Positions 2,996 through 41,106 are shown, counted from the first letter of the stretch. The stretch: DNA of 64,000 nt from Bifidobacterium breve (GCA_945865605.1 CAMBEL010000002.1:24473-88472), one strand, 5' to 3'. Numbers and translations: made by a program. The notes: a model not told the origin generated them from the sequence alone.

Positions 2996-5275
2996 ATGGG
3001 CAAAGTAGTTGGATGCAACGCTTCTATGGATGAGGTGCGGTCCACGTACGAGAAACTCGTAAGAAACGTCGACATTGCACGTCGTCGGCTTGGGCGACCG
3101 CTCACGTTTGCTGAAAAGGTGCTGTTCGGCCACGCGAACGACATCGAGACAATCGAAACTGTTCGAGGGCTGAAGTACGGCGACTATCGACCCGATCGCG
3201 TCGCGATGCAAGATGCGACAGCGCAGATGGCGTTGCTGCAGTTCATGAATGCTGGCCTGCCAGCTGTATCCGTGCCTTCGACCGTGCACTGCGACCACCT
3301 GATCCAGGCGCGAATCGGTGCGCAGGCGGACTTAGCCGCTGCTCTCGATGAGAACGACGAGGTCTACGACTTCCTCGCTTCGGTTAGTGCGAAGTATGGA
3401 ATCGGTTTTTGGAAACCAGGGCAAGGGATCATTCACCAGGTGATACTTGAGCACTACGCATTCCCTGGCGGGATGATGATTGGCACCGATAGCCATACTC
3501 CGAATGCTGGTGGGCTCGGGATGATTGCAATCGGAGTTGGTGGCGCCGATGCCGTAGATGTGATGGCGGGCTGGCCGTTCAATACGCGGATTCCGCTGGT
3601 GATCGGCGTGAGACTCTCGGGCGAGTTGTCCGGTTGGGCATCTGCCAAGGACGTGATCCTGAAGGTAGCCGGAATCCTTACCGTCAAAGGCGGTACAGGG
3701 GCCATCATTGAGTACTTCGGGCCAGGCACTTCGACGATTGCCGCAACCGGAAAGGCGACTATCTGCAACATGGGTGCTGAGATCGGCGCAACGTGCTCGG
3801 TGTTCCCCTTTGACGACCGCATAGCCGCGTATATGAAAGTTACGGAACGAGCCAAATTGGCTGTGCTCGCAGAGCAACATAGTGCATACCTTCAGGCGGA
3901 CCCAGAGGTTGCCGACGATCCCGAGCGTTATTTCGACCGCGTGATCGATGTGAATCTCTCGGATTTGGAGCCACACATTGTTGGTCCCGGTACTCCCGAT
4001 CTTGATCGCCCCATCTCGTCGATGCGCGAAGCCGTGAAGGTAGAGGGGTACCCGGCGCGAATTTCTCAAGCGCTAGTAGGTAGTTGCACAAACTCAAGCT
4101 ACGAAGACATCGGGCGTGCGGCCCATGTCGCGCGTCAGGCCGCTGCAGCGGGCATCCGCGTGAAGGTGCCGCTACTGGTGACTCCCGGAAGTGAACAAGT
4201 ACGCGCCACGATCGCACGCGACGGTCTCCTAGCCGACCTCGAAGCGATCGGTGCCACTGTGCTGGCGAACGCGTGCGGACCATGCATCGGGCAGTGGCAA
4301 CGGACAGACACGAAGCCGGGAGAAGTAAACACGATCGTGTCATCGTTCAATCGCAATTTCCCTGCGCGCAACGATGGCAATCCGTCGACGTTGTCGTTCA
4401 TCGCTTCACCTGAGACTGTTACCGCAATGGCGTTGACGGGCCGTCTCGATGTGGATTTTGTACATGAACCGATCATCGCTCCGGATGGTTCTGAGATTCA
4501 ACTGCGCGCGCCGGAAGCCGATGAGTTGCCAGCTGGTGGTTTTGATGCAGGCGAAATGGGTTTCGTAGCTCCCGCTGCAGATCCGTCGACAGTCGCGGTG
4601 GTGATCCCACCTGGATCGGAGCGTTTAGAAGCCCTCGTTCCATTCGCGGCTTGGGACGGATCTGATTTCTTGGGATTACAGGTGCTACTCAAGGCCACAG
4701 GTAAATGCACGACCGACCACATTTCGCCTGCTGGGCGTTGGCTTCAGTACCGAGGTCATTTAACCAACATCTCAGGCAATCTTTTCATAGGCGCGAACAA
4801 CGCGTTCTCACTTGATGAACCTGGCACCGGCATCGATGTACGTGATCGATCCGTGAAGCCGCTCCCAGCGCTGGCTCGCGAATACAAGGACGCAGGAATT
4901 GCCTGGGTCGCCATCGGCGATGAGAACTATGGCGAAGGATCGTCCCGTGAGCATGCTGCAATGGAACCGCGCTATATGGGAGCGCGTGCAGTTATCGCTC
5001 GCTCGTTCGCGCGCATTCACGAGGCGAACCTCAAGAAGCAAGGCGTGTTGGCACTCACCTTCGCTAAATCATCAGACTATGAGCGCATCCTGGTCGACGA
5101 CAAGATCGACATTTGTGGTCTGCAAGAACTAGCGCCAAATGTGGTAGTAAATGTGGTCTTGCGGCATGCAGATGGTTCTAGCAATGAAATCGAAACAACC
5201 CACACAATGTCAGACGAGCACATCGCATGGTTCAGGGCCGGGTCAGCTCTCAACCTTTTGGCGGCAAATCGGTGA
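2996..5275 (+). CDS. acn: Aconitate hydratase, short (about 760 aa) mitochondrial-type
   Basis: Long near-identical blocks to aconitase: [83 protein letters not shown]. Length and block order match my recollection of the mitochondrial ACO2 class, not the roughly 900 aa AcnA/IRP class. Confidence 0.95.
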   Translation: [759 protein letters not shown]

Positions 5276-5291
5276 GTACTGACAATAAAAA

Positions 5292-7457
5292 GTGACTCCT
5301 CTCGGGCGTTTAGGTGGTGCGGCATTTAGGCGGCGCTGGTGGGTGATCTTGGCGTGGCTGGTCATCCTGGTGACACTCGGAGTCGCGAGTACTTCTGTTG
5401 GTTCGACATTCCGGGACGAGTTCACAATTCCAGGCACAGACGCGCAGCGGGCGATCGACCTGCTCGATGCGCGGTTTCCCCAACAGAACCTTCCGACTGC
5501 TCAAGTGGTGCTGCACTCCAATTCCGGGAAGGTAGACCCGGCTGTTATCGAATCGGTTGCGGCTTCGGTTGGAAAGATTCGCAATGTTCAGGTCCTCGGT
5601 CTACCACAGGTCTCAACCAATGGTCAGACGGCTCTAATACAGATGGCCTATTCGGTTAGTTGGAGTGACTTGCCGCTTAATGGACTGGCACAACTCGATT
5701 CGGCCACCCGTGCGGCTCGTGAAGCTGGTGTAAGGGTTGACTATGGGGGACCTGTAGCGGACGCGCTTTTGGAGAAAAGACAAAGTGGCACCAACGCTGA
5801 CGCGATAGGACTGCTTGTTGCACTTGTGATCTTGATCCTTGTTTTCGGCACGGTGGTAGCCGCGCTGATACCTGTCGGCATGGCGATTATGGGAATAGTC
5901 ATCGCAGTATCGCTGCTTACCGTCGTGGCGACGATGTTTACCGTCGGTACTGTCGCTCCAGTCATCGGAGTGATGATCGGCTTAGGCGTAGGGATCGACT
6001 ACTCCCTACTGATTGTCACGCGATTTCGTCAGAATCGTGACGCAGGAATGGATATTCAGCAGGCGATCGAAGTTGCGATGGCCACCGCAGGAAGTGCCTC
6101 ATTGTTTGCCGGCGCTTGCGTCATGATCTCGTTGGGGGGTCTGTGGTTCGCGGGGATTCCTTATGTTTCGATGCTCGGATTCTCTGCCGCGCTATTCGTT
6201 CTTGTGATGGTCCTTGTGTCGCTGACACTCTTGCCGGCGCTCCTCGGCGTGTTGGGTGATCACCTGGATCGCTTGCGTGTGATTCCGAAAAGGCATTCTC
6301 ATGCGGATGCAGGGGGCGGATTTTGGTATCGATGGGGCCATGGCGTAGCCAAATATCGGTGGCCTTGTCTTGTGGCGTCCCTCGCGGTCCTACTGCTGCT
6401 GGCTTGGCCAGCTCTTGGATTACAGCTTGGCTTTGCAACCGACGGCGATGATCCAACTAGCTACACACAACGTCGCGCGTACGACTATGTGGGCGAAGCG
6501 TTCGGTCCCGGCGCGAATAGTCCGCTACTCATCACAATGAAGTTCGCACCCGCTGCCAAGCGTGACGTCGCTTCAGATCTTTCCGCAGTACAGCGCGTCC
6601 TTGGTGCGGTCAAAGAAACGAAAGGCGTGGTACTTGCCGAGGGGCCACTTTTCAACAAGGCTGCTTCAGCGGGAGTCTTGATCGTTATCCCGTCTACCGA
6701 ACCCAATGCAGTGGCGACGCAAGATCTTGTACGAACGCTTCAGAATCGCGTCATCCCGTCCGCTACGGCGGGAACCCCGTTAGCTGGAAATGTGTTTGTC
6801 GGCGGAATTACCGCGGAATTGATTGCCATTACCGATCGCATTTCAGAGCGGCTGATTTGGTGTATCGGATTTGTTGTGCTCGCGGCATTCTTCTTATTGA
6901 TGTTGGTGTTTCGCTCCATATTGGTTCCGCTCAAGGCCGCAGTGATGAATTTTTTATCAATCGGGGCTGCTTATGGAGTGCTAGTCGTAGTGTTCCAGTG
7001 GGGCTGGGGGCGTAACCTGATAGGGGTCCACGAAGCGGTTCCAATTGTTTCGTTCGTGCCACTAATGATGTTCGCGATTCTGTTTGGTTTGTCGATGGAC
7101 TACGAGGTGTTCCTGTTGTCGCGTGTGCGCGAGGAGTACCTCGCGACAGGCGACAACCGTGAAGCCGTGGCGACAGGCTTGGCTAAGACCGCGAGAGTGA
7201 TCACGTCTGCGGCTGCGATCATGATCTCTGTGTTCCTTGTATTCGTTACCAACTCGTCGCCAACGGTGAAGATGCTTGGAATTGGCCTGGCGGCAGCAGT
7301 CGCAGTTGACGCCACGATCGTGCGCTTGCTTCTCGTTCCATCCACGATGGAACTCCTTGGCAAAGCGAACTGGTGGATGCCCAAGTGGCTGGATCGCATT
7401 CTGCCGCGCCTTGATGTTGATGGTCCATCGGAAGTCCGTGCTAAAGCTGACGCCTAG
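5292..7457 (+). CDS. MMPL-family (RND superfamily) membrane transporter
   Basis: 721 aa. Two repeats of a soluble loop plus a TM bundle. MMPL-type blocks GIDYSLLIVTRFRQ and GLSMDYEVFLLSRVREE. GTG start. Confidence 0.85.
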   Translation: MTPLGRLGGAAFRRRWWVILAWLVILVTLGVASTSVGSTFRDEFTIPGTDAQRAIDLLDARFPQQNLPTAQVVLHSNSGKVDPAVIESVAASVGKIRNVQVLGLPQVSTNGQTALIQMAYSVSWSDLPLNGLAQLDSATRAAREAGVRVDYGGPVADALLEKRQSGTNADAIGLLVALVILILVFGTVVAALIPVGMAIMGIVIAVSLLTVVATMFTVGTVAPVIGVMIGLGVGIDYSLLIVTRFRQNRDAGMDIQQAIEVAMATAGSASLFAGACVMISLGGLWFAGIPYVSMLGFSAALFVLVMVLVSLTLLPALLGVLGDHLDRLRVIPKRHSHADAGGGFWYRWGHGVAKYRWPCLVASLAVLLLLAWPALGLQLGFATDGDDPTSYTQRRAYDYVGEAFGPGANSPLLITMKFAPAAKRDVASDLSAVQRVLGAVKETKGVVLAEGPLFNKAASAGVLIVIPSTEPNAVATQDLVRTLQNRVIPSATAGTPLAGNVFVGGITAELIAITDRISERLIWCIGFVVLAAFFLLMLVFRSILVPLKAAVMNFLSIGAAYGVLVVVFQWGWGRNLIGVHEAVPIVSFVPLMMFAILFGLSMDYEVFLLSRVREEYLATGDNREAVATGLAKTARVITSAAAIMISVFLVFVTNSSPTVKMLGIGLAAAVAVDATIVRLLLVPSTMELLGKANWWMPKWLDRILPRLDVDGPSEVRAKADA

Positions 7458-8722
7458 AAGGTTGTGAACTGTGCCTCGGTAGGTTCCGCGCAGCAGAACC
7501 AGGGTTCAGATAGGTGCGGTACCGAAACGTCGGGAGCGTTCACCGGTTCCAACCCGAGTTCCACTCGCACCGCATCGAACGTCTCAGAGACAGGATTGTC
7601 AGTCATCGTCTCGACGATCGTCGCCAACCTTTTCTGAAGAGGGTCTAACGGAGAGTGCCAAGGGTGCGAGAGCCGTTCGGGATCAAACGGCATTAGCCCA
7701 TCGATTTCTCCGATTAGTAGCGATCCCTGTGGAACGAGAAGTCTGATCGAGTAATGAACAGGATCGACGTTGCTAATGAGGTCGTTATCGGCGACAAAGT
7801 TTGTAATTTCCTGCACATCTTGTAGGTCAGACCATGGCGTAAAAGGCAACCAAGTCGGGCGTACCGTGATTCCGTGATCCCTCAACACGGCAACTGCTTG
7901 CTGTCCATCCTTGGCTGTGTGTCCTTTGTCGAGTCTTTCAAGAATTGTGTCGTTCACGGACTCGAACGCGCTCACCACGAATAAGCATCCGAGTCCGGAC
8001 ATCTCACCCCACACTTCTTCATGCCGCAATATGTGTTCGACCTTGACAGTGCAGTCGAATGTCATGTCTGGCGCCGCTTCGTGGACTGCCCGTGCGACGC
8101 GTAACGCGTGGTGTATCCCGTTGAAGAAATCTGGGTCGCCGAAGGTGACGTGCCGCGCGCCAGCATTCTTCTGTGCGACTACGTCCTCGACTATCGCGTC
8201 TACTGACACTATTCGGGTACGTCCGTCGTATACGACAGGTACCGGGCAGTGCTTACACCGGTGTGCGCAACCAGTGGATGCCTCGACATACGCTGTCGGC
8301 AATTCGCTGTCGGCCAACACCAGACGCGCGTAACTCGTGAGTGGGGGGAGAAGGTTCCGGGCCGGTAGGGCTCTAACGTGCTCGGCGAGTAGATCTTCTT
8401 CAATCCATCGCAACAGGGCGGTTTCGGGATCGCGGTCCACCAAAGCGGTCGCGACTTCAGCGCACATCGCAGCGTATAGACCATAGGCCGCGACGGGCAC
8501 CTCAAACTTCGGCGCTATCGACCGCGCAAGTCTCGCTGCAGTGTGCATTGGAACAGAAATAGCGACGCGGTCTGCCCAATTGACGAGCGCTCCATCCCAC
8601 TCCTGCACTGAGAGGTCTAGGCAGCGGACTTCGTGCCCCCGCTCCTGCAACATCCCCGCCGGTCCAGCGACCCCGAGCGGCTGGTGGCCGAGTTCGTAGG
8701 TGGACACCAGAAGAATTTTCAT
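7454..8722 (-). CDS. B12-binding-domain radical SAM protein with a C-terminal CCAEP tail
   Basis: Start set at the ATG at 8722 (MKILLVSTYELGHQPLG...), which forms an ATGA overlap with the upstream ATP-grasp stop. The 151 codons upstream of it in the raw ORF are Arg/Pro/Ser-rich and overlap the ATP-grasp gene. N-terminal Rossmann-like B12-type domain. CAHRCKHCPV is a CX3CX2C radical SAM motif. The tail reads PWFCCAEPTEAQFTTF. Confidence 0.85.
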   Translation of the reverse strand: MKILLVSTYELGHQPLGVAGPAGMLQERGHEVRCLDLSVQEWDGALVNWADRVAISVPMHTAARLARSIAPKFEVPVAAYGLYAAMCAEVATALVDRDPETALLRWIEEDLLAEHVRALPARNLLPPLTSYARLVLADSELPTAYVEASTGCAHRCKHCPVPVVYDGRTRIVSVDAIVEDVVAQKNAGARHVTFGDPDFFNGIHHALRVARAVHEAAPDMTFDCTVKVEHILRHEEVWGEMSGLGCLFVVSAFESVNDTILERLDKGHTAKDGQQAVAVLRDHGITVRPTWLPFTPWSDLQDVQEITNFVADNDLISNVDPVHYSIRLLVPQGSLLIGEIDGLMPFDPERLSHPWHSPLDPLQKRLATIVETMTDNPVSETFDAVRVELGLEPVNAPDVSVPHLSEPWFCCAEPTEAQFTTF

Positions 8723-9894
8723 GCAATAACGATATCGAGGTGAGTGACCGCCTCCCGAAGGGCGGATTCGACTTGGTCGGGGGAGTCTGCGCGCGCAAAG
8801 AGAAAACCTAGGTAGCGATCGCCTTCGGGCAAGGGGACAACGCGATGACCAATCGGAATTGTGATCTCTAGTCCTACGACTCCCGGCACCCCGAGTGCTC
8901 GTTCGCGGCCGTTTACCGCGACCAACGTGCCTTCCTGTGCAATCGGGAGCATTGTCACGCCGGATGCGCTGCGCTCGCGCGCGAGGTCGGTCATAGGTAA
9001 GTTGAGAGCGTGTCGTAATACGACCTCCTCGAGACTGATCCCTGCGCCGAAACGAAGGGCACGCGCGCACAGGCCACCCACCGATCGGGATGCCACCTCG
9101 ATAACCCAGGCTTGGGCATCTTTGACGCGCACCTCGGCATGCACCGGTCCCTCGGTCAATCCCAATGCAACACAAGCAAGCGAAGCGGCCCGTTCTGCAG
9201 CCCCCAGGTCGCGAGGAACAAGCCGCGACGGTGTGACATACATCGTCTCTTCGAAATAGGGACCGACAAGTGGATCCGGCTTGTCGAAAATCGCAAGCAC
9301 CTCGAGCCGTCCATTCGTGAGCAAACCTTCGAGAGCAATCTCTACCCCGGGAACGTATTGCTCAACCAATAGTGGCCCGTCCCAAAATGTTGCGATACGG
9401 ATGCGGGCGGCCGACTCCTGCTCTGCCGTATCGGCGCGGATGACCCCTCGGCTTCCGGACAGTCCTGTTGGTTTCACAACACATGGGTATCCGACCTCCG
9501 CTCCCGATGATCCGAATCGAGGTTGGGTTACTTCGGATTTTGCAAGGCGCCTTCGCATCTCGGCTTTGTCGCGAGTCGCTGCGACCGAGTCGGGCGCACT
9601 GTGCGGAAAGCCGAGGCGTTCTCCGGCATGAGCGGCAGCAAGCGTTCCACCGTCATCGACAGCCACAACAGCATCGATCCCGTGTTCGCGGTCGAAAGCT
9701 TCGATTGCATCGGCCGCGGCCAACGGATCATCCAGCGGGATCTGGACAAGCCCGCGCCCGTTTCCCACGGGTGAAGGCATCTCGGTGCCAATTACCAAGT
9801 CAACCTCGATTGCCTTGGCGGCGGCGATGAAATCCTGGGCTCTATATGTGGCCGAGGGAACGAGGAGGAGAATCCTTGGCATACGGCCTATCAT
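8719..9894 (-). CDS. ATP-grasp domain protein (carboxylate-amine ligase type)
   Basis: ATP-grasp blocks YPCVVKPTGLSGSRGVIRAD, LLVEQYVPGVEIALEGLL and GPVHAEVRV...AWVIEVASRSVGG. The start could be M1 (9894) or M5 (9882). Confidence 0.8.
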   Translation of the reverse strand: MIGRMPRILLLVPSATYRAQDFIAAAKAIEVDLVIGTEMPSPVGNGRGLVQIPLDDPLAAADAIEAFDREHGIDAVVAVDDGGTLAAAHAGERLGFPHSAPDSVAATRDKAEMRRRLAKSEVTQPRFGSSGAEVGYPCVVKPTGLSGSRGVIRADTAEQESAARIRIATFWDGPLLVEQYVPGVEIALEGLLTNGRLEVLAIFDKPDPLVGPYFEETMYVTPSRLVPRDLGAAERAASLACVALGLTEGPVHAEVRVKDAQAWVIEVASRSVGGLCARALRFGAGISLEEVVLRHALNLPMTDLARERSASGVTMLPIAQEGTLVAVNGRERALGVPGVVGLEITIPIGHRVVPLPEGDRYLGFLFARADSPDQVESALREAVTHLDIVIA

Positions 9895-9900
9895 GGCCTC

Positions 9901-10524
9901 ATGAGCGACGCGATGACACCACTGTTGACCGTGACCGACGAAGCCCGCATCAAGATCATTGATGTTCGGGCGGCGGAACCGGAGTCGGAATCACTTGCAC
10001 TTTGGCTCGAGGTGAGCGGCGTGCAAGGGACGGCATACACGTACGAGATGTATTTCCGCAGACTCGATGAAGCAGGCGAGGACGAGGTAGTGCAGAGCGG
10101 CGATGACCTATGCGTTGTAGTTCCGAGTGCGGACGCGGAAAAAGTTCGGGGATCGACGCTGGATCTTTCAGGTGGCGGCATGGTTCTCCAGAATCCGAAT
10201 GTTCCCCAAGTTGGTCCTTCCGCCCCAGCGGCCGAACTCGACCTGAGCGATCCGATTGTCGCGCGCATCGTCGAGATACTTCAGACCGACATCAACCCAG
10301 CAATCGCGGCGCATGGTGGATATGCCGAATTGGTTGCGATTGAAGATTCGCGGGCATACATGCGCATGGGTGGGGGTTGCCAGGGCTGTGGCATGGCAGC
10401 GGCGACGCTCTCTCAAGGCATCGAGGTAGCGATTCTCGATGGTGTTCCTGAGATCACCGAAGTCATCGATGTCACCGATCACGCTTCAGGAACCAATCCG
10501 TATTACGAGAGTGCCAAGAAGTAG
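9901..10524 (+). CDS. NfuA-like Fe-S cluster carrier (degenerate A-type domain + Nfu domain)
   Basis: The C-terminal Nfu block IAAHGGYAELV...MGGGCQGCGMAAATL carries the CXXC. The N-terminal HesB/IscA-like domain has no Cys ligands, as in NfuA. Confidence 0.8.
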   Translation: MSDAMTPLLTVTDEARIKIIDVRAAEPESESLALWLEVSGVQGTAYTYEMYFRRLDEAGEDEVVQSGDDLCVVVPSADAEKVRGSTLDLSGGGMVLQNPNVPQVGPSAPAAELDLSDPIVARIVEILQTDINPAIAAHGGYAELVAIEDSRAYMRMGGGCQGCGMAAATLSQGIEVAILDGVPEITEVIDVTDHASGTNPYYESAKK

Positions 10525-10540
10525 GCAACAAACAAAGTGA

Positions 10541-11257
10541 CTAGGCGAAGCGCGTAGCGTCTTCGGATGCGTACCTGGAAACTGCGGCGTCGGCGATCGC
10601 ATTTTTTTCGATCGCTTCAATAATGGATCCCAGTTTCTCCGCCGGAATCGCGCACGTCATTTCTGTGGCCGCCATTCCCGTTCGGACTCGGCTCAATGCA
10701 CAACCAACACTTGCGGCTATCTCCCGCTGTTCCTTCGCTATCGCGACGATGTGACACTGAGGTTTACCTTCGATGCGCAACCCTGGGATTGCGTCTGACA
10801 AAACCATGAGTTGCTTACCGTTCACGCGGATGAAAACTACGTCGGGATCGAAAGATGTTTCAGTGAGTGGCCCGTATGTAACAGCCCCAGGCTTTTTTGT
10901 AATAACTGGAATGTGAGGCACTAGCTCCATCGTCACCCAACCGGAGCCGACCAATGCTGCAACGTCGTCGTTTCCAGCCACTTCGTCGAGAGTCTTGAAA
11001 CCGTGCGTCATGCTCCCAACGCTGCAGTTACCGTGATCTTGTTCAACCGTCGAGAAGGTGTTTGTTTCTCCGTGGATCCAAAAGACGCAACCCGCTGCCG
11101 CTCGTCCGGTCCTGCCATCGGCCAGGGGAGAGGGAATGGGAAGGCCACATGGTTTGACCCCATCTGGGGGCGCGTCGTGGAAAGTGATTGCTAGGGGAGC
11201 ATTTGCGAGATTCAGCGATCCCGAGAGCCGCCGTGCCAGTTCTGACCAGTTGTTCAT
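10541..11257 (-). CDS. Conserved hypothetical, probably DUF169 family
   Basis: 238 aa soluble protein. The pattern resembles my recollection of DUF169 (APLAITFHD..., GCVFW...CSVGSMTHGF, ASVGCALSRVRTG...EMTCAIP). The family assignment is tentative. Confidence 0.45.
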   Translation of the reverse strand: MNNWSELARRLSGSLNLANAPLAITFHDAPPDGVKPCGLPIPSPLADGRTGRAAAGCVFWIHGETNTFSTVEQDHGNCSVGSMTHGFKTLDEVAGNDDVAALVGSGWVTMELVPHIPVITKKPGAVTYGPLTETSFDPDVVFIRVNGKQLMVLSDAIPGLRIEGKPQCHIVAIAKEQREIAASVGCALSRVRTGMAATEMTCAIPAEKLGSIIEAIEKNAIADAAVSRYASEDATRFA

Positions 11258-11279: not shown

Positions 11280-12413
11280 TTAATTGGTACCGAACAGGGC
11301 ACGGAGTTGTGTAACTACGCCCGAGAACTCGGAAATGAAGAGATCTATCTCGGCATCGGTTGTGTTCCAACCGATGCTCACTCGGAGCGAGTGGTCTGCA
11401 GCGACTCCCATAGCCATGAGCACTGGCGATGGTTCTAGGGATTCGCTTGAGCACGACGAGCCAGAGTGAATAGCGATGCCGCGTTGATCTAGGCCGAGCA
11501 AAATGGGTTCCGCTTCTACACCGTCCACGCCGAAACAGAGAATATTCGGGAGCCGATCTACTGAATCCCCAAATCTTGTGATGCCATTGACGTCATTCGA
11601 AATCGCCGTGAACGCTCGTTCAGTGTTACGACGCGCAATTTCTTCCTCTGAACTGAGGGTCACCGATACCTCGGCCGCAGCCGCACCGAATCCGACGATC
11701 GCAGGGATATTTTCTATCCCACCGCGCCGCGCGCGCTCTTGCGCACCTCCCAAGATCAAAGATGGGATACGAAGGCCGCGCCGCACAAGCAATGCGCCAG
11801 TGCCCTTCGGGCCACCCCACGTGTGTGCTCCTACGCTGCAGAGATCTGCGCCGAGCGCGGCGAAGTCGATCGGCACTTGACCAATAGCTGCGCACGCATC
11901 GACATGTACAAGGGCGCCGCTAGCGCGCGCAAGAGCACATACCTCTGCTGCGGGCTGCATGGTTCCAACTTCGTGATTGGCGAGTTGGATTGTTACGAGA
12001 GCAGTCGTCGGCGAGATGTTGGAATGGATCTCAGCCGGATCAAAACGTCCGTGGCGATCGACGCCAACCACAATGGTCTCGAGTTCCTCGCGGTGACACG
12101 CTTCGATGACGCTCGAATGTTCTACCGCCGTGGTGACTAGACGGGTTGGGTTCGCGCAGCGACGTACCGCCCCAAATATCGCGGCATTGACAGATTCGGA
12201 TCCACCCGAGGTAAAGATCACTTCGCGTGGACGTGCACCGAGTAAAGAAGCGACTTGTTCTCTCGCAAGTTCTACGGCCGATCGTGTCACCTTTCCCGGT
12301 CCATGAAGGCGTCCCGGGTCCGCATGATGTGCATGCAAAAAAGGCAACATCGCCTCTAGCGCGGACTCGCGTAGTGGTGATGCCGAAGCGTGGTCTAGGT
12401 AGGCGTTATTCAC
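11280..12413 (-). CDS. NifS/IscS-like class V aminotransferase-fold protein (cysteine desulfurase family) with the PLP lysine replaced
   Basis: Family blocks: YLDHASASP, FTSGGSESVN, AVEHSSV, HVDACAAIGQ and the active-site loop SGSSCSS. The usual (S/A)GHK motif reads GAHTWGGPKG: codon ACG at 11820-11822 where Lys is expected. Confidence 0.85.
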   Translation of the reverse strand: MNNAYLDHASASPLRESALEAMLPFLHAHHADPGRLHGPGKVTRSAVELAREQVASLLGARPREVIFTSGGSESVNAAIFGAVRRCANPTRLVTTAVEHSSVIEACHREELETIVVGVDRHGRFDPAEIHSNISPTTALVTIQLANHEVGTMQPAAEVCALARASGALVHVDACAAIGQVPIDFAALGADLCSVGAHTWGGPKGTGALLVRRGLRIPSLILGGAQERARRGGIENIPAIVGFGAAAAEVSVTLSSEEEIARRNTERAFTAISNDVNGITRFGDSVDRLPNILCFGVDGVEAEPILLGLDQRGIAIHSGSSCSSESLEPSPVLMAMGVAADHSLRVSIGWNTTDAEIDLFISEFSGVVTQLRALFGTN

Positions 12414-13129
12414 ACGCGGGCGACGCAGTGCGCGTCGCCTTCAGGTCGGCTTTGTTCGAAGTGCGGTTGTGTCTCACCGTAGAGGCCAGCCATTAGACCG
12501 CGTATGAGGCCGCGATCTACCGCGCACACAACATGTGGATACAACTGGGCAGCGTCGCCGAACGGGCAGTGTTCGGAAATGATCGTCATCGAATCACCGT
12601 GCTGTTCGGCGTGAGCGGCGAAACCATGTGCTGTTAGAGCGTCAGCCACTGTCGCGAGCGCGGCCTTGACCGATCGGTGACCCTCGCTGGGAGCGATGCG
12701 ATCCGCGAGCGAGCGTCCGTAGTCGTAGCCAACTTCTTCAGCCATGACGGACGCTTGATCTGGCGGCAATACTTCGAGCGCGCGTGCGAGCAGTGTTGCG
12801 AGAAGGTCGTCGCGTCGTGGAGGAAAGTTCAGTGAATGGTCGAGTTGAGTAACCCGGTATCTCTTCGATGGACGGCCTGCTGAACGAGCGCCTTCCGGCC
12901 GACCCATATCGACGACGAGATAGCCACCTGCAGTCAATTTTTCTAGATGGTGTCTCGCGACGTTTGGATGGAGTTCGAATCGTTCAGCGATCTCTCCTGC
13001 GGTTGCGCCTTCGGGAGCTTCACGTATTGCCAGATAGATCTCGCGTCGTGTTGTGTCGCCGAAAGCGTTGGTGACGGAGGTGACGGCGGCGCTGAATTCC
13101 GAGGCGTCGAGCGGTGCGGGCGAAGACAT
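12410..13129 (-). CDS. ArsR/SufR-like winged-helix regulator with a Cys-containing C-terminal domain
   Basis: wHTH block EIAERFELHPNVARHHLEKLTAGGYLVV. The C-terminal domain has three Cys (EHCPFG, VVCAVDRG, AHCVARV). Start set at the ATG at 13129 (MSSPAPLD). The longer ORF would collide with the divergent mrp start. ATGA-type 4-nt overlap with the nifS-like gene. Confidence 0.7.
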   Translation of the reverse strand: MSSPAPLDASEFSAAVTSVTNAFGDTTRREIYLAIREAPEGATAGEIAERFELHPNVARHHLEKLTAGGYLVVDMGRPEGARSAGRPSKRYRVTQLDHSLNFPPRRDDLLATLLARALEVLPPDQASVMAEEVGYDYGRSLADRIAPSEGHRSVKAALATVADALTAHGFAAHAEQHGDSMTIISEHCPFGDAAQLYPHVVCAVDRGLIRGLMAGLYGETQPHFEQSRPEGDAHCVARV

Positions 13130-13164
13130 CCCCGTTATTGTACCTATCTCCGTAGTAGTAAATC

Positions 13165-13179
13165 GCTGGCGCCGCCAGC
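13165..13179. promoter_or_regulatory. Perfect 7-1-7 palindrome GCTGGCG-C-CGCCAGC in the divergent regulator/mrp intergenic region (candidate operator)
   Basis: Read directly: 13165-13171 is the reverse complement of 13173-13179. It lies in the 68-bp gap between the regulator start (13129, minus) and the mrp start (13198, plus). Confidence 0.4.
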
Positions 13180-13197
13180 ACTCGGCAAGGAGACTCA

Positions 13198-14004
13198 ATG
13201 CCAGGCGAGAACCCGTTCACACACGCCAATACGAGGGTTATTGCGATTGCATCGGGCAAGGGTGGAGTCGGCAAGTCATCGGTAACGACGAACCTTGCAG
13301 TGTCGCTTGCGCGAATGGGCAAGCGCGTGGCGGCGCTCGACGCGGATGTATGGGGATTCTCGATGCCCAGGATGCTTGGCATTAGCGAGGCGCCGTCAAT
13401 CAAAGATGACAAGACGATGATTCCGCCTTCGTCCTTCGGGGTGCGTTGCATCTCGATGGGCTTCTTCGTTCCAGAAGATCAGGCCGTTGTTTGGCGAGGA
13501 CCAATGCTTCACAAGGCTCTCGAGCAATTTCTCACGGATGTTGATTGGGGAGAGCCTGAATATCTAATCGTCGACATGCCCCCTGGCACTGGAGACGTAG
13601 CGCTATCGCTAGCCGAGTTCTTGCCGCGCGCCGAAGTCGTGATCGTCACCACGCCGCAGCCCGCAGCACAGGCAGTCGCGCAACGCGCGGCGGCAATGGC
13701 CGACAAGGTCGATCTAGATGTCATCGGCGTAATCGAAAACATGAGCTTCTTCCGAGGCGATGACGACAAGGCCTATGAGATCTTTGGAAGTGGTGGAGGA
13801 CAAGACTTGGCTACTCGGCTCGAGGTGCCGCTGCTCGGACGTATTCCCTTGGTCAAAGAATTGCGAGAGGGTGGTGACATTGGGCGCCCGATAGTGGAAA
13901 CGGATCCGTCGGGTGAAACATCTCAAGTGTTCGGCGCGATTGCAACAGCCATCGATTCAATGGCGCCTAAACGCATTTACAAGAAAGAACTTCGCCTCTC
14001 CTGA
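13198..14004 (+). CDS. Mrp/ApbC/NBP35-family P-loop ATPase (no CXXC ligands)
   Basis: Deviant Walker A IASGKGGVGKSS. Blocks LIVDMPPGTGD and GVIENMSFF...IFGSGGG. AAGGAG Shine-Dalgarno upstream. The whole protein has a single Cys. Confidence 0.8.
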   Translation: MPGENPFTHANTRVIAIASGKGGVGKSSVTTNLAVSLARMGKRVAALDADVWGFSMPRMLGISEAPSIKDDKTMIPPSSFGVRCISMGFFVPEDQAVVWRGPMLHKALEQFLTDVDWGEPEYLIVDMPPGTGDVALSLAEFLPRAEVVIVTTPQPAAQAVAQRAAAMADKVDLDVIGVIENMSFFRGDDDKAYEIFGSGGGQDLATRLEVPLLGRIPLVKELREGGDIGRPIVETDPSGETSQVFGAIATAIDSMAPKRIYKKELRLS

Positions 14005-14475: not shown

Positions 14476-15441
14476 ATGTTGCGTGCGCCCGATCTACTCG
14501 GGCGGCGTCTCCTGTTCTTCACCGGTAAAGGTGGGGTTGGCAAGAGCACCGTCACGGCGGCTATGGCGCTGCTGGCAGCTGAACGCGGCAAGCGCGTACT
14601 TGTTGTCGAGGTCGACGGCAAGAGTTCCATTGCGGACCGCTTCGAGACAGCGGAACTGTCGTTCACGCCGACCGGGGTGTATCCGAACGTATTCGCGATG
14701 GCAATGGATACGGAGGCAAGCCTCAGGGAGTATCTGAAGCTCAATCTGCGTGTCCCGATTGTTGGTGGATTGGGGCCGTTGGCGAAGGCGCTCGATTTCG
14801 TGGCCACCGCTGCTCCTGGCGTCAAGGAGATTCTCACGATCGGCAAGATTTGCTGGGAAGTGCGTGAATCTTTGGAAGGCCGTGCTGCGTGGGACCTTGT
14901 AGTCGTCGACGCGTCGGCGACAGGGCCTGTTGTTTCACAGTTGGGCGCGCCTGATGCAATTCGCGATGTCGTAGCTGTCGGCCCAGTCCGGTCACAAACG
15001 GATTGGATGAGTGCGCTGCTCGCCGACCCATCAATTACTGCGCTCAATATCGTCGCGACTGCCGAAGAACTTCCAGTTGCCGAAACGATTGATCTGGTTT
15101 CCCGCGTGCGGGAACAGTTAGATGTAAGTCTTGGCGCCGTTGTGGTCAATCAGGTTCTCCCCGCGCTGTTCACCCGGTCGGACGAGGTAGTTTTCGAGCG
15201 TCTCTGCGGTCCAGATGCACGCAAGGTGCTGGGAATAGCGGCTGGAGGAGATGTAGGCATAGTTCTCGAGGCGGCGAGGCTTGCCGAGTCGCTACGCGCA
15301 ACTCGTGCGATGCACTTGGAGCGATTGCGTGAGACGGTCGACCTTCCAATGCTGTTCCTGCCCTACTTGTTCGCGCGTTCACACGGATTGAGGGAGACGC
15401 GGCTAGTGGCAGACGCACTTAGAGCCGAACTCGGGCTGTGA
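14476..15441 (+). CDS. ArsA/Get3-family ATPase, paralogue 1
   Basis: P-loop FFTGKGGVGKST. ArsA-type blocks (VVVDASATGP). GTGA overlap with paralogue 2. The pair resembles the Rv3679/Rv3680-type arrangement. Confidence 0.8.
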   Translation: MLRAPDLLGRRLLFFTGKGGVGKSTVTAAMALLAAERGKRVLVVEVDGKSSIADRFETAELSFTPTGVYPNVFAMAMDTEASLREYLKLNLRVPIVGGLGPLAKALDFVATAAPGVKEILTIGKICWEVRESLEGRAAWDLVVVDASATGPVVSQLGAPDAIRDVVAVGPVRSQTDWMSALLADPSITALNIVATAEELPVAETIDLVSRVREQLDVSLGAVVVNQVLPALFTRSDEVVFERLCGPDARKVLGIAAGGDVGIVLEAARLAESLRATRAMHLERLRETVDLPMLFLPYLFARSHGLRETRLVADALRAELGL

Positions 15442-16691
15442 CTGCGGCTGACGAAGACTCCATCGAAGGCTCTCAGGCGAGATCAGGTGCTGAGTCGCTT
15501 CACAAGAGTCTTGAACCGCTATTGGCTTCGAAGAAGATCGTCGTGTTTTGCGGCTCTGGCGGTGTTGGCAAGACGTCGATTGCTGCCGCATCGGCACTAG
15601 CAGCAGCGGCGACAATGCCAGGGAAGGTTTTGGTACTAACAATTGATCCGGCCAAGCGACTAGCCGATTCCCTCGGGCTTAAAGAGATTGGAAATATCGA
15701 AACGCGTGTTCCTCAGACGGCATTTACTGCCGCCGGTCTTGAACCCCGCGGAGAACTCTGGGCCGCCATGCTCGATACGAAGGAGAGTTGGGATGCTTTA
15801 ATTCTTCGGCACGCGAGTGGTCCAGAGGCAGCGTCGAGGATCTTGCAGAATCGGCTGTATCACAACGTGACCGCGCGGTTTGCTCAGAGTCACGACTACA
15901 TCGCAATGGAGAGACTTTTTGAGGTCCATGAATCAGGTCGATACGACTTGATTGTGATTGATACTCCTCCAACACGTAACGCTCTCGACTTCCTCGACGC
16001 CCCAGCGCGAATGGCGGAGTTCTTTGGTGGTCGTCTCTTGCGATGGCTCACGCTGCCATATCGCGTGGGAGGTAAACGTGGCGCGCGATGGCTCAACTAT
16101 GCCAGCAAGCCCTTCTACCAAGTCGCCGACCGTCTTCTTGGGAACCAGTTTCTCGAAGACATCGCTGAGTTCTTCTTGAGTTTTCAAGAGATGTACGAAG
16201 CCTTTGTCACGCGTGCTCGTGCCGTCGAGCGACTGCTTCACGATAAGCGGACAACTTTCGCCGTGGTCACAACCCTCGAAGATGGCCCGTTGCACGAAGC
16301 GGAGTTGTTTTGCGCAGAACTAGAGAAGAGGAACCTTCACCTTGGATGCCTCGTGATCAACAAAGTCTTACCTTCATACCTCCTCTCGCATAGCGGTGTT
16401 CAAGCCGCGGACAAGTTGTCCTTTAACGCCGAGTCTGTAGCCGAACGCCTAGCTGCTACCTGTGGGTCTCCTTTCGATGACACAGCGCGTACCATTCGCG
16501 TACTTACAACAATTGGGGAATCCTTTAGGAACTTCACAGTGGTCGCTAGGCGCGAGTCCGAACTTCGCAGTCACCTCGGTAGACATGGCGAAGTGTTGAT
16601 CGAAGTGCCCGCTTTCGAGGTGGACATTGCCGACATCGATGGTCTTGCACGATTGGCAGAGTTCCTACTTCCTATTGAGCGAACGGTTTGA
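15438..16691 (+). CDS. ArsA/Get3-family ATPase, paralogue 2
   Basis: P-loop FCGSGGVGKTS and DPAKRLADSLG, IVIDTPPTRNALDFL. GTG start overlaps the upstream stop. Confidence 0.8.
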   Translation: MTAADEDSIEGSQARSGAESLHKSLEPLLASKKIVVFCGSGGVGKTSIAAASALAAAATMPGKVLVLTIDPAKRLADSLGLKEIGNIETRVPQTAFTAAGLEPRGELWAAMLDTKESWDALILRHASGPEAASRILQNRLYHNVTARFAQSHDYIAMERLFEVHESGRYDLIVIDTPPTRNALDFLDAPARMAEFFGGRLLRWLTLPYRVGGKRGARWLNYASKPFYQVADRLLGNQFLEDIAEFFLSFQEMYEAFVTRARAVERLLHDKRTTFAVVTTLEDGPLHEAELFCAELEKRNLHLGCLVINKVLPSYLLSHSGVQAADKLSFNAESVAERLAATCGSPFDDTARTIRVLTTIGESFRNFTVVARRESELRSHLGRHGEVLIEVPAFEVDIADIDGLARLAEFLLPIERTV

Positions 16692-18243: not shown

Positions 18244-18531
18244 TTACGAAGCGCGCTTGCTGGCAAGCCAACCTTTGCGGAGCTTGCGGCGCTCTTCCTC
18301 GGTCTTGCCTCCCCAGACTCCAGCCTCCTGGTTGGTCGCGAGCGCGAACTCGAGACATTCAAAGTCGACTGTGCAGATATCGCAGATCTCTTTTGCCGCA
18401 TCGATTTGATCTACCGCGAGTCCAGTGGCACCTATCGGGAAAAACAGGTCAGCGTTCGAATCACGACATAATGAATCGGCTCGCCAATCGTCAGTATCCC
18501 AATCGTGCGTCCGTATCCAGGTGAGCGCCAC
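18244..18531 (-). CDS. whiB: WhiB-family Fe-S transcription factor
   Basis: WRADSLCRDSNADLFFP ... EICDICTVDFECLEFAL ... GVWGGKTEEERRKLRK: four Cys plus the GVWGG turn. The start is uncertain. I used the in-frame GTG at 18531 (VALTWIRTHDWDTDDW...). The raw ORF extends to 18660. Confidence 0.85.
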   Translation of the reverse strand: MALTWIRTHDWDTDDWRADSLCRDSNADLFFPIGATGLAVDQIDAAKEICDICTVDFECLEFALATNQEAGVWGGKTEEERRKLRKGWLASKRAS

Positions 18532-41034: not shown

Positions 41035-41106
41035 TGCCCTCGGCAGGACTCGAACCTGCGCACACGGCTCCGGAGGCCGATGCTCTATCCACTGAGCTAC
41101 GAGGGC
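41035..41106 (-). tRNA. tRNA-Arg (anticodon CCG), CCA not encoded
   Basis: Manual fold of the reverse complement: acceptor GCCCTCG/CGAGGGC; D arm GCTC-AGTGGATA-GAGC; anticodon arm TCGGC-CTCCGGA-GCCGT (anticodon CCG); T arm GCAGG-TTCGAGT-CCTGC; discriminator A. Confidence 0.9.

Follow-up and report, generated by a model that had tools for sequence, protein, structure and literature searches.

Conserved linkage of an ArsL-related radical SAM enzyme with a Cys-Cys or Cys-Sec tail to an L-amino-acid-ligase-type ATP-grasp protein and an Nfu-type carrier

ArsL is a non-canonical radical S-adenosylmethionine (SAM) enzyme that splits SAM into methylthioadenosine (MTA) and a 3-amino-3-carboxypropyl (ACP) radical and builds the C-As bond of arsinothricin. 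The CCxxC motif at the C-terminus of ArsL binds As(III) and is essential, and the engineered form most active on methylarsenic had a tail cut to 'MCCA', with two vicinal Cys. Here we compare ArsL with a radical SAM protein (rSAM) of 422 amino acids, encoded on the minus strand (7454-8722) of a 64,000-nucleotide stretch filed under Bifidobacterium breve (CAMBEL010000002.1:24473-88472; the window), which has a Cys-Cys tail and lies next to the gene of an ATP-grasp ligase (8719-9894, minus strand; 391 amino acids). Apart from ArsL, only Dph2 of diphthamide synthesis is known to generate an ACP radical from SAM with a [4Fe-4S] cluster; it differs in having an unrelated fold without the CX3CX2C motif and a protein histidine as acceptor. 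To our knowledge, ArsL is the only rSAM of canonical fold which cleaves SAM in this manner.

A sequence-only reading of the window had pointed to a curated family named for a CUAEP/CCAEP tail and lacking an assigned function. The family is real: NCBIfam NF040546, the 'CUAEP/CCAEP-tail radical SAM (seleno)protein', matches the window rSAM with 447.4 bits (E 5e-134) and full-length homology, and all families other than this one and ArsL (NF040542) scored below 46 bits in the NCBIfam search. The full-length match and the tail speak for membership, but the score is below the curated cutoff of 500 bits, and the window rSAM is therefore best placed in a divergent clade of the family, together with close relatives scoring 453 and 450 bits (P0001 and P0021). 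A 56%-identical relative (P0108) reaches 536 bits and the Thermomicrobium roseum protein WP_012643191.1 765 bits, while true ArsL proteins score 336-364 bits. The T. roseum protein shares with the window rSAM the tail motif, the CX3CX2C motif and homology over the full length, whereas the window clade (447-453 bits) has a shorter linker between N-domain and core and, unlike T. roseum, is almost always coupled to ATP-grasp and NfuA genes. A 2022 preprint termed the NF040546 family uncharacterised and described CU motifs as rare, suggesting contact with a heavy atom (a heavy metal, in Haft's reading). No function or pathway for the family or for the gene pair was found in literature searches, as the earlier reading had supposed.

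The Radical_SAM model of Pfam (PF04055; gathering score 29.5) reaches 52.8 bits on the window rSAM, and the cluster motif CX3CX2C (GCAHRCKHC, with C152, C156 and C159; 8246-8269, minus strand) is invariant in the alignments of the Cys-Cys (CC), Cys-selenocysteine (CU) and ArsL groups. The core is preceded by a Rossmann-like, 'B12-binding-like' domain (approximately residues 1-110; 8393-8722, minus strand), whose YELGHQP and PMHTA motifs are kept in alignments, and is followed by a helical C-domain and the tail. The AlphaFold2 model has a pLDDT of 93.3 and a pTM of 0.91, and values of 86 and 77 in the tail mean that the latter is not predicted to be disordered. The closest solved fold is that of the rSAM diol dehydratase AprD4 (PDB 6fd2; TM-score 0.67, 16% identity), with MiaB and RimO also among the structural matches. 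AprD4 likewise combines a cobalamin-free Rossmann-like N-domain with an rSAM core; unlike the window protein it lacks a Cys tail, and it performs canonical 5'-deoxyadenosyl chemistry on an aminoglycoside. The label 'B12-type' given to the enzyme by the earlier reading stands as regards architecture, but the Pfam B12-binding model (PF02310) reaches only 21.5 bits on the N-domain, under its gathering score of 32.1. Because of this sub-threshold match, the AprD4-like fold and a review according to which neither ArsL homologues nor AprD4 bind cobalamin, the modelled N-domain is probably not cobalamin-binding, and 'B12-type' is an architectural label only.

The key lead, which was absent from the earlier note, is the relationship with ArsL. 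The window rSAM is 30% identical to Pseudomonas amygdali ArsL over residues 1-338, which comprise the N-domain and core (E 3e-56). Invariant residues common to the window family and ArsL are H154, H191, D196, D198, F199, N201, H205, D223, T225, H230, E254, K266, P296, W297 and Q323, to which the N-domain adds G12, P15, D36 and G81 as residues held in common. The motif FGDPDFF, which replaces 'GGE', was not used as an ArsL-specific signature, similar motifs being presumably general in the Rossmann-rSAM group. Both proteins consist of a Rossmann-like N-domain, a CX3CX2C core and a Cys-bearing C-terminal tail, and the vicinal Cys pairs of the two tails align. As judged from these alignments, ArsL is a sister family and by far the closest characterised relative. 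The tails themselves differ, in that the window family has E-x-W-[FY]-C-[CU]-A-E-P, with two thiol or selenol ligands, and ArsL has R-C-C-L-K-C, with three. Since ArsL with the 'MCCA' tail is active, a two-thiol arm like that of CCAEP proteins should be chemically competent.

In the window rSAM the tail motif reads E-P-W-F-C-C-A-E-P (E406 to P414; 7481-7507, minus strand), with C410 and C411 as the vicinal pair. The protein ends in ...EPWFCCAEPTEAQFTTF before the stop codon (terminal residues also given as ...LSEPWFCCAEPTEAQFTTF); read to the stop, this end is WFCCAEPTEAQFTTF, with CCAEP beginning 13 residues before the end and encoded at 7481-7495 as TGC TGC GCG GAA CCT, i.e. in the Cys-Cys form. 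We found the CCAEP tail in 119 of 120 close homologues (as WFCCAEP), the remaining one having CCSEP. Across CC and CU sequences, E406, W408, C410 and the residue at 411, Cys or selenocysteine, are 100% conserved, except that C411 is kept in 97% of the CC group. Beyond the CX3CX2C triad and the pair in the tail, no cysteine is conserved throughout the family, and the stretch that follows CCAEP ranges from 8 to more than 40 residues among homologues. A four-Cys auxiliary cluster built from C224, C246, C410 and C411 was considered and rejected: C224 and C246 are kept only in the window clade, and are Phe and Leu in ArsL.

When representatives of 50%-identity clusters were inspected, the tail motif was present in 47 of 150, and a further pattern emerged in 39 of 150, which stop precisely after ...E-x-W-[FY]-C, the mark left by a UGA that was not recognised. 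Metagenome loci (the selenocysteine loci, L086-L165) were chosen with a DNA pattern that spells E-x-W-[FY]-C-TGA-[AS]-E-P, with an in-frame TGA at the second tail Cys. The pattern retrieved at least 80 loci, and in all 80 listed the frame continues as AEP[TN]xxQ... up to a stop further on. A hairpin resembling a selenocysteine insertion sequence (SECIS) spans 15-40 nt after the in-frame TGA in these loci and was detected in 63 of 79, with a stem of 6-8 bp, an AGTT or AGGTG loop and a start 15-17 nt past the U of UGA; no hairpin was found at that position in Cys-Cys genes. The conserved Gln of AEPTxxQ is specified by CAG in the loop, which means that RNA element and protein motif occupy overlapping sequence. 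Selection on the tail is strong, and its second Cys alternates with selenocysteine; the conservation among orthologues and the selenocysteine members, both put forward beforehand, are thus found in the data.

The ATP-grasp gene is the first of the pair, and its TGA stop sits within the ATG of the rSAM gene, giving an ATGA overlap (8719-8722, read as 'gcATGAaa') indicating translational coupling. The rSAM reading frame is open upstream to a TTG at 9175 in the mechanical list of open reading frames (ORFs), and we take the ATG at 8722 as the start, where homologue alignments begin and which yields the 422 amino acids called in identical metagenome contigs. The ATP-grasp protein matches the Pfam models ATP-grasp_4 (89 bits), LAL_C2 (57 bits) and ATPgrasp_N (32 bits); its best solved relative is the L-amino-acid ligase (LAL) BL00235 of Bacillus licheniformis (3vot; E 3e-26), with BacD at E 1e-8. 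By these matches, the window protein is a ligase of the LAL type. A search for its homologues returned no informative names, and the top homologues share contigs with the top rSAM homologues.

In order to assess how widely the pair is kept, we scanned 185,579 genomes, one per species, at least 566 of which carry an rSAM relative. The best 80 genome loci, from Acidimicrobiia, Thermoleophilia/Solirubrobacterales and Chloroflexota, were examined, 62 of them being well flanked (at least 1.5 kb on each side), and neighbouring ORFs in high-GC DNA were chosen with the guidance of GC content at third codon positions (GC3). An ATP-grasp gene lies directly upstream of the rSAM gene in 54 of the 62 well-flanked loci, elsewhere in the locus in 3, and is absent from 5, and the two genes overlap or are close in 69 related loci. 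The co-conservation of the pair, as proposed from the window, is therefore borne out. One protein of 850 amino acids (P0229) is a credible natural ATP-grasp::rSAM fusion. A second apparent fusion (L001, 9860-10060) was discarded, as its junction reads out of frame after ...LGFLFAR, affecting the last ~25 residues of the ligase, which makes an assembly indel likely. Among 23 well-flanked selenocysteine loci the order is reversed (rSAM followed by ATP-grasp) in 11, and ATP-grasp is missing in another 11.

A ligase of the same kind accompanies ArsL. Arsenic clusters on plasmids of Alicyclobacillus acidocaldarius (L208 2118-9257), Priestia filamentosa (L209 2430-9139), Pantoea agglomerans (L210 6001-11852) and Bacillus cereus (L211 620-8624) combine an rSAM with an RCCLKC tail and an ATP-grasp protein. 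Three of these ligases were scanned (Alicyclobacillus, Pantoea and B. cereus), and all contain the ATP-grasp_4 core, with ATPgrasp_N and LAL_C2 in those of Alicyclobacillus and B. cereus. The Alicyclobacillus ligase aligns with residues 50-391 of the window ligase (E 4e-18), and BL00235 is the best solved relative of both; among the ligases of ArsL clusters, this comparison covered the Alicyclobacillus protein. No ligase is present in the arsQ-arsL-arsM cluster of P. amygdali, so that ArsL is often, not always, clustered with one. Because ArsL-type clusters carry this kind of ligase, the combination of a tail-Cys rSAM with an L-amino-acid ligase appears, from the protein comparisons, to be a design shared by both sister families. 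The plasmid clusters (CMD-like protein, ATP-grasp, major facilitator superfamily (MFS) transporter, ArsM, RCCLKC rSAM, CobW GTPase and ArsN) also resemble the window locus in having a chaperone-like accessory, and differ from it in being arsenic-linked, plasmid-borne and patchy, with CobW and CMD in place of Nfu and YggX as accessories.

The unit had been drawn too narrowly as a two-gene module: the pair is real, but because the divergent NfuA-like gene is co-conserved, the unit has three parts. In the window this gene (9901-10524, plus strand) encodes a putative iron-sulphur (Fe-S) carrier of 207 amino acids, with an A-type-carrier-like N-domain and an Nfu domain with the motif CQGC. It starts 6 bp from the start of the ATP-grasp gene (18-30 bp with the starts of other gene callers), matches Pfam NifU with 69 bits and aligns by residues 10-202 with 2-190 of the 190 positions of TIGR03341 (NCBIfam; 92.5 bits, under the cutoff of 269). 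An NfuA-like gene is found within 3 kb of the rSAM gene in 61 of the 80 genome loci, across three classes and mostly divergent from ATP-grasp, and in one locus (L077) it stays with the rSAM gene though ATP-grasp is missing. In some selenocysteine lineages a short Nfu-domain gene with CxxC lies inside the operon, at times between the rSAM and ATP-grasp genes. Of 68 selenocysteine-lineage loci, 21 have a gene for YggX (Fe2+-trafficking, PF04362) within 3 kb, and YggX often stands in NfuA's place in these lineages. In one of these (L108) the YggX gene (4963-5241 of the oriented copy) abuts the start codon of the rSAM gene (5242-6546), which suggests a single operon, and in another (L165) the YggX gene, at 501-821 of the oriented copy, sits just upstream of the rSAM gene, again of the selenocysteine type.

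The three genes probably make an amino-acid-derived metabolite by unusual radical chemistry, as far as homology can tell. From the homologies, the tail, the gene linkage and the ligase type shared with ArsL clusters we infer how SAM is cleaved, what the arm does and which atom it carries, as well as the order of steps and the product, as follows. The rSAM would bind SAM at the [4Fe-4S] cluster of CX3CX2C and, in the manner of ArsL, cleave the C-gamma-S bond to give an ACP radical and MTA. A thiophilic atom X, held by the Cys-Cys or Cys-Sec C-terminal arm, would capture the radical, giving a 2-amino-4-X-butanoate amino acid, which the coupled LAL-type ATP-grasp enzyme would join to a second amino acid or amine. 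The Nfu-type carrier, or YggX in selenocysteine lineages, would install or repair the Fe-S cluster and may also load or re-reduce the arm. C-terminal vicinal pairs which carry a soft metal or shuttle electrons to an active site exist in MerA (...CC) and thioredoxin reductase (GCUG), which are unrelated flavoenzymes and analogous in function only. We give this three-part scheme, an ArsL-like aminocarboxypropyl transfer to a thiophilic atom on the arm followed by ligation, a probability of roughly 0.35, by analogy with ArsL. Its weakest step is the identity of X: sulphur or selenium, passed on as a persulfide or perselenide, is our first guess and, from the genomic context, more likely than a metalloid. 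The Fe-S and sulphur neighbours of the rSAM gene are NfuA, YggX, a NifS-like desulfurase and a DsrE-like protein. A thiophilic-atom theme is hinted at by MerB domains, fused or adjacent to the rSAM in two lineages (described below). A free small-molecule product is hinted at by the transporters which lie near the rSAM gene and differ between lineages (MMPL, MFS and an apparent POT-type peptide permease), and by a pyridoxal-phosphate (PLP) aminotransferase in T. roseum.

A number of points weigh against this scheme. T. roseum and about half of the well-flanked selenocysteine loci have no adjoining ATP-grasp gene, and the window rSAM falls short of both curated cutoffs, with 447 of 500 bits for NF040546 and 217.9 of 450 for ArsL. 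Its tail holds the vicinal pair only, without the third Cys of RCCLKC, and no arsenic genes lie beside the window pair. Literature searches for an ATP-grasp protein in ArsL-type clusters (arsinothricin with ATP-grasp; ACP radical with ATP-grasp) found no paper. ACP-radical chemistry cannot be read from sequence, and the family is known from its genes alone. If X were sulphur or selenium, the making of homocysteine or selenohomocysteine from SAM looks metabolically circular, with no obvious physiological rationale. Finally, the broad, syntenic and apparently vertical conservation beside housekeeping Fe-S genes is unlike that of a typical antimetabolite cluster.

Several other explanations account for part of the same evidence. 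The enzyme could use canonical 5'-deoxyadenosyl chemistry, as does AprD4, its nearest solved fold, in which case the ATP-grasp enzyme would make a dipeptide or amide from which the rSAM then abstracts a hydrogen atom, the tail serving as H-atom donor or as a disulfide/selenenylsulfide shuttle (as in thioredoxin reductase and ribonucleotide reductase) and the CxxC of Nfu re-reducing it. Cys/Sec alternation is typical of redox sites, such as the C-terminal Cys-Sec of thioredoxin reductase, and the Nfu domain with CxxC inside some operons would fit this role, as would the position of ATP-grasp as first gene, translationally coupled to the rSAM gene; the selenocysteine lineages, however, have the rSAM gene first. 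Moreover, ArsL is by far the nearest relative in sequence, its equivalent tail binds substrate, and its clusters, in which the rSAM itself makes the amino acid, hold the same ligase type, so that we consider the canonical alternative doubtful. A sacrificial sulphur insertion in the style of LipA, BioB or MiaB, in which a substrate radical would attack the sulphur of an auxiliary Fe-S cluster or of a tail persulfide and NfuA would rebuild the spent cluster, has to contend with the cysteine count: beyond CX3CX2C and the CC/CU pair there is no family-wide Cys (C224 and C246 being confined to the window clade), and the conventional site for a three- or four-Cys auxiliary cluster is thus missing. 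Selenocysteine is, in addition, an unusual Fe-S ligand. This explanation seems to us distinctly unlikely, despite the NfuA-like gene kept in 61 of 80 loci, the known regeneration of the LipA auxiliary cluster by NfuA, the presence of MiaB and RimO among the structural matches and a neighbourhood of lipoyl-synthase-like, quinolinate-synthase-like and MoaA-like proteins (these three by sequence recognition only), aconitase, NifS-like and DsrE-like proteins and YggX.

Taking the ArsL parallel literally, the arm would bind a two-coordinate soft species, such as methylarsenite, Sb(III) or Hg(II), and the enzyme would make or detoxify an organometallic amino acid, the dipeptide being a Trojan-horse antibiotic. 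ArsL with 'MCCA' does handle methylarsenic with two Cys only, Haft's reading of CU motifs is of heavy-metal contact, Trojan-horse peptides, bacilysin and rhizocticin among them, are products of L-amino-acid ligases, and the T. roseum rSAM gene adjoins an MFS transporter, with a GNAT-domain protein ~2 kb off. The two lineages with MerB (alkylmercury lyase) fit as well, the domain being in one fused to a CCAEP rSAM through a Pro-rich linker (P0157, 695 amino acids, JGI sample 3300047160, with a second MerB gene on the contig) and in the other encoded by a MerB-like gene just upstream of an rSAM gene of the selenocysteine type (L152, 3644-3982 of the oriented copy). Nevertheless, MerB is associated in these two cases only, the conserved neighbourhood is one of housekeeping Fe-S genes in three classes, and the 160 related loci (1.76 Mb) contain no ars, mer or resistance genes, the arsenic-related matches being one ArsB-like protein and one generic methyltransferase. 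Judged by this genomic context, the substrate atom is not arsenic, and the organo-metal(loid) enzyme in the strict sense is quite improbable. Modification of a peptide or protein, either as in the pathways of ribosomally synthesised and post-translationally modified peptides (RiPPs) or on a client such as aconitase or the rSAM's own tail, to which ATP-grasp would add residues for the rSAM to cross-link or alkylate, is the least credible of these explanations and highly improbable. Both enzyme types occur in RiPP pathways, and Dph2 transfers ACP to a protein; against this, the ATP-grasp protein has the architecture of a free-amino-acid ligase, including LAL_C2, and the variable length of the sequence after CCAEP (8 to more than 40 residues) means that the C-terminus is not a conserved ligation site. 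There is also no conserved small precursor-peptide ORF in or beside the pair, in the window or across the 160 loci, which agrees with the earlier view that this is not a classical RiPP cassette.

Returning to the ACP-radical scheme, a bolder form of it would make the CCAEP/CUAEP enzymes a second and far more widespread canonical-fold class of ACP-radical enzymes, forging a C-S, C-Se or other C-heteroatom bond on an atom carried by their own Cys-Cys or Cys-Sec arm, with the ligase then yielding a metabolite, an amino acid or a dipeptide, which is yet to be discovered and would be widespread among Actinomycetota and Chloroflexota of soil (and in other bacteria, from unclassified metagenome contigs) and linked to Fe-S and iron homeostasis. 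In this full extent the proposal is unlikely, but if the ACP chemistry were true, it would mean a new reaction that forms carbon-heteroatom bonds, and a metabolite of abundant soil bacteria that is so far unknown. The family is already curated and hence not a categorically new object; in the searched literature, its conserved triad, its function and its likeness to arsinothricin clusters seem not to have been described. As a sister of ArsL it is far larger, with at least 566 carriers in the 185,579 species-level genomes, hundreds of 50%-identity clusters and many selenoproteins. Through the linkage to an amino-acid ligase and an Fe-S carrier, and through the presence of this ligase type in ArsL clusters, what was an orphan annotation becomes a testable biochemical hypothesis; the same findings also point to an unrecognised step in arsinothricin-type clusters. 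A handy experimental entry point is T. roseum, a cultured carrier, whose megaplasmid (DSM 5159, NC_011961; L206 7509-14414) encodes a CCAEP rSAM without ATP-grasp, flanked by the divergent PLP aminotransferase and the convergent MFS transporter, the GNAT domain ~2 kb off being part of a GNAT/ABC-ATPase fusion gene.

The plasmid ArsL clusters hold genes beyond the published ArsL, ArsM, ArsQ and ArsN, namely those for the LAL-type ATP-grasp, a small CMD/AhpD-like protein and a CobW-type GTPase. These extra genes suggest an undescribed further step, possibly leading to an arsinothricin peptide.

The genes, the ATGA overlap, the CX3CX2C and CCAEP motifs and the immediate neighbours given in the earlier note all agree with the sequence of the window. 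Downstream of the pair, a gene for an MMPL/RND transporter (5292-7457, plus strand; Pfam MMPL) is convergent with the rSAM gene, their stop codons overlapping in a palindromic CTAG (7454-7457, TAG on each strand), which leaves no intergenic room for a terminator. MMPL genes are found within 3 kb in only 10 of the 80 genome loci, 9 of them labelled Acidimicrobiia, making MMPL a lineage-specific neighbour and a possible exporter. Next to it lies an aconitase gene (2996-5275, plus strand), identified by ORF translation and by the Pfam Aconitase model on an identical contig; aconitase or aconitase-like genes occur near the rSAM gene in 13 CC and 6 CU loci, as a recurrent but loose neighbour.

On the other side, the NfuA-like gene is followed by genes for a DUF169 protein (10541-11257, minus strand; Pfam DUF169), a NifS-like cysteine desulfurase (11280-12413, minus strand), a SufR/ArsR-like helix-turn-helix regulator (12410-13198, minus strand) and an Mrp/ApbC-like ATPase (13198-14004, plus strand), the last three identified with NCBIfam and Pfam models. 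DUF169 genes lie within 3 kb in 26 of the 80 genome loci, including those of Chloroflexota at 27-29% identity; a figure legend supplied the single mention of DUF169 met in the literature, beside Nitrospina HgcA-like genes. The arrangement of NifS-like, SufR/ArsR-like and Mrp genes is kept in actinobacterial loci (Acidimicrobiia / 'Actinomycetes' metagenome-assembled genomes (MAGs)). Aconitase, NifS-like, SufR-like, Mrp and weak DsrE-like neighbours were checked by family models or translated search, whereas the lipoyl-synthase-like, quinolinate-synthase-like and MoaA-like ones were seen by sequence recognition only. The DsrE/DsrF-like protein, of 121 amino acids and with the motif LCDQCALERC, matches Pfam with 21.3 bits, slightly under the gathering score; its gene runs convergently towards the rSAM stop in 17-18 loci (for example L052 11473-11838 and L036 11394-11759), of which several carry a Solirubrobacterales label. 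Lipoyl synthase is a known client of NfuA, and in Chloroflexota lipoyl-synthase-like and pyruvate-dehydrogenase-E1-like genes, again by sequence recognition only, lie within 2 kb past the rSAM gene (L019 12055-12990 and 13053-15761; also L021, L027, L031, L032 and L062).

Close homologues of the window genes, and the identical contigs, come from Acidimicrobiia MAGs. Genome bins with the actinobacterial-type locus are also labelled Bifidobacterium breve, Bordetella parapertussis, Bifidobacteriaceae or Burkholderiales (L014, L016, L005 and L057), probably because MAG contigs were mis-binned or mislabelled. Two adjoining genes matching ArsA_ATPase of Pfam and a WhiB-like gene, upstream of the Fe-S block, were placed through the gene calls of a related locus (L081) at ~14476-16691 and ~18244-18531 of the window; the ArsA_ATPase-matching genes are no part of an ars operon. 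Neither the window nor 13 selenocysteine loci yielded a riboswitch, and the sole Rfam match in the window is a tRNA gene (41035-41106, minus strand).

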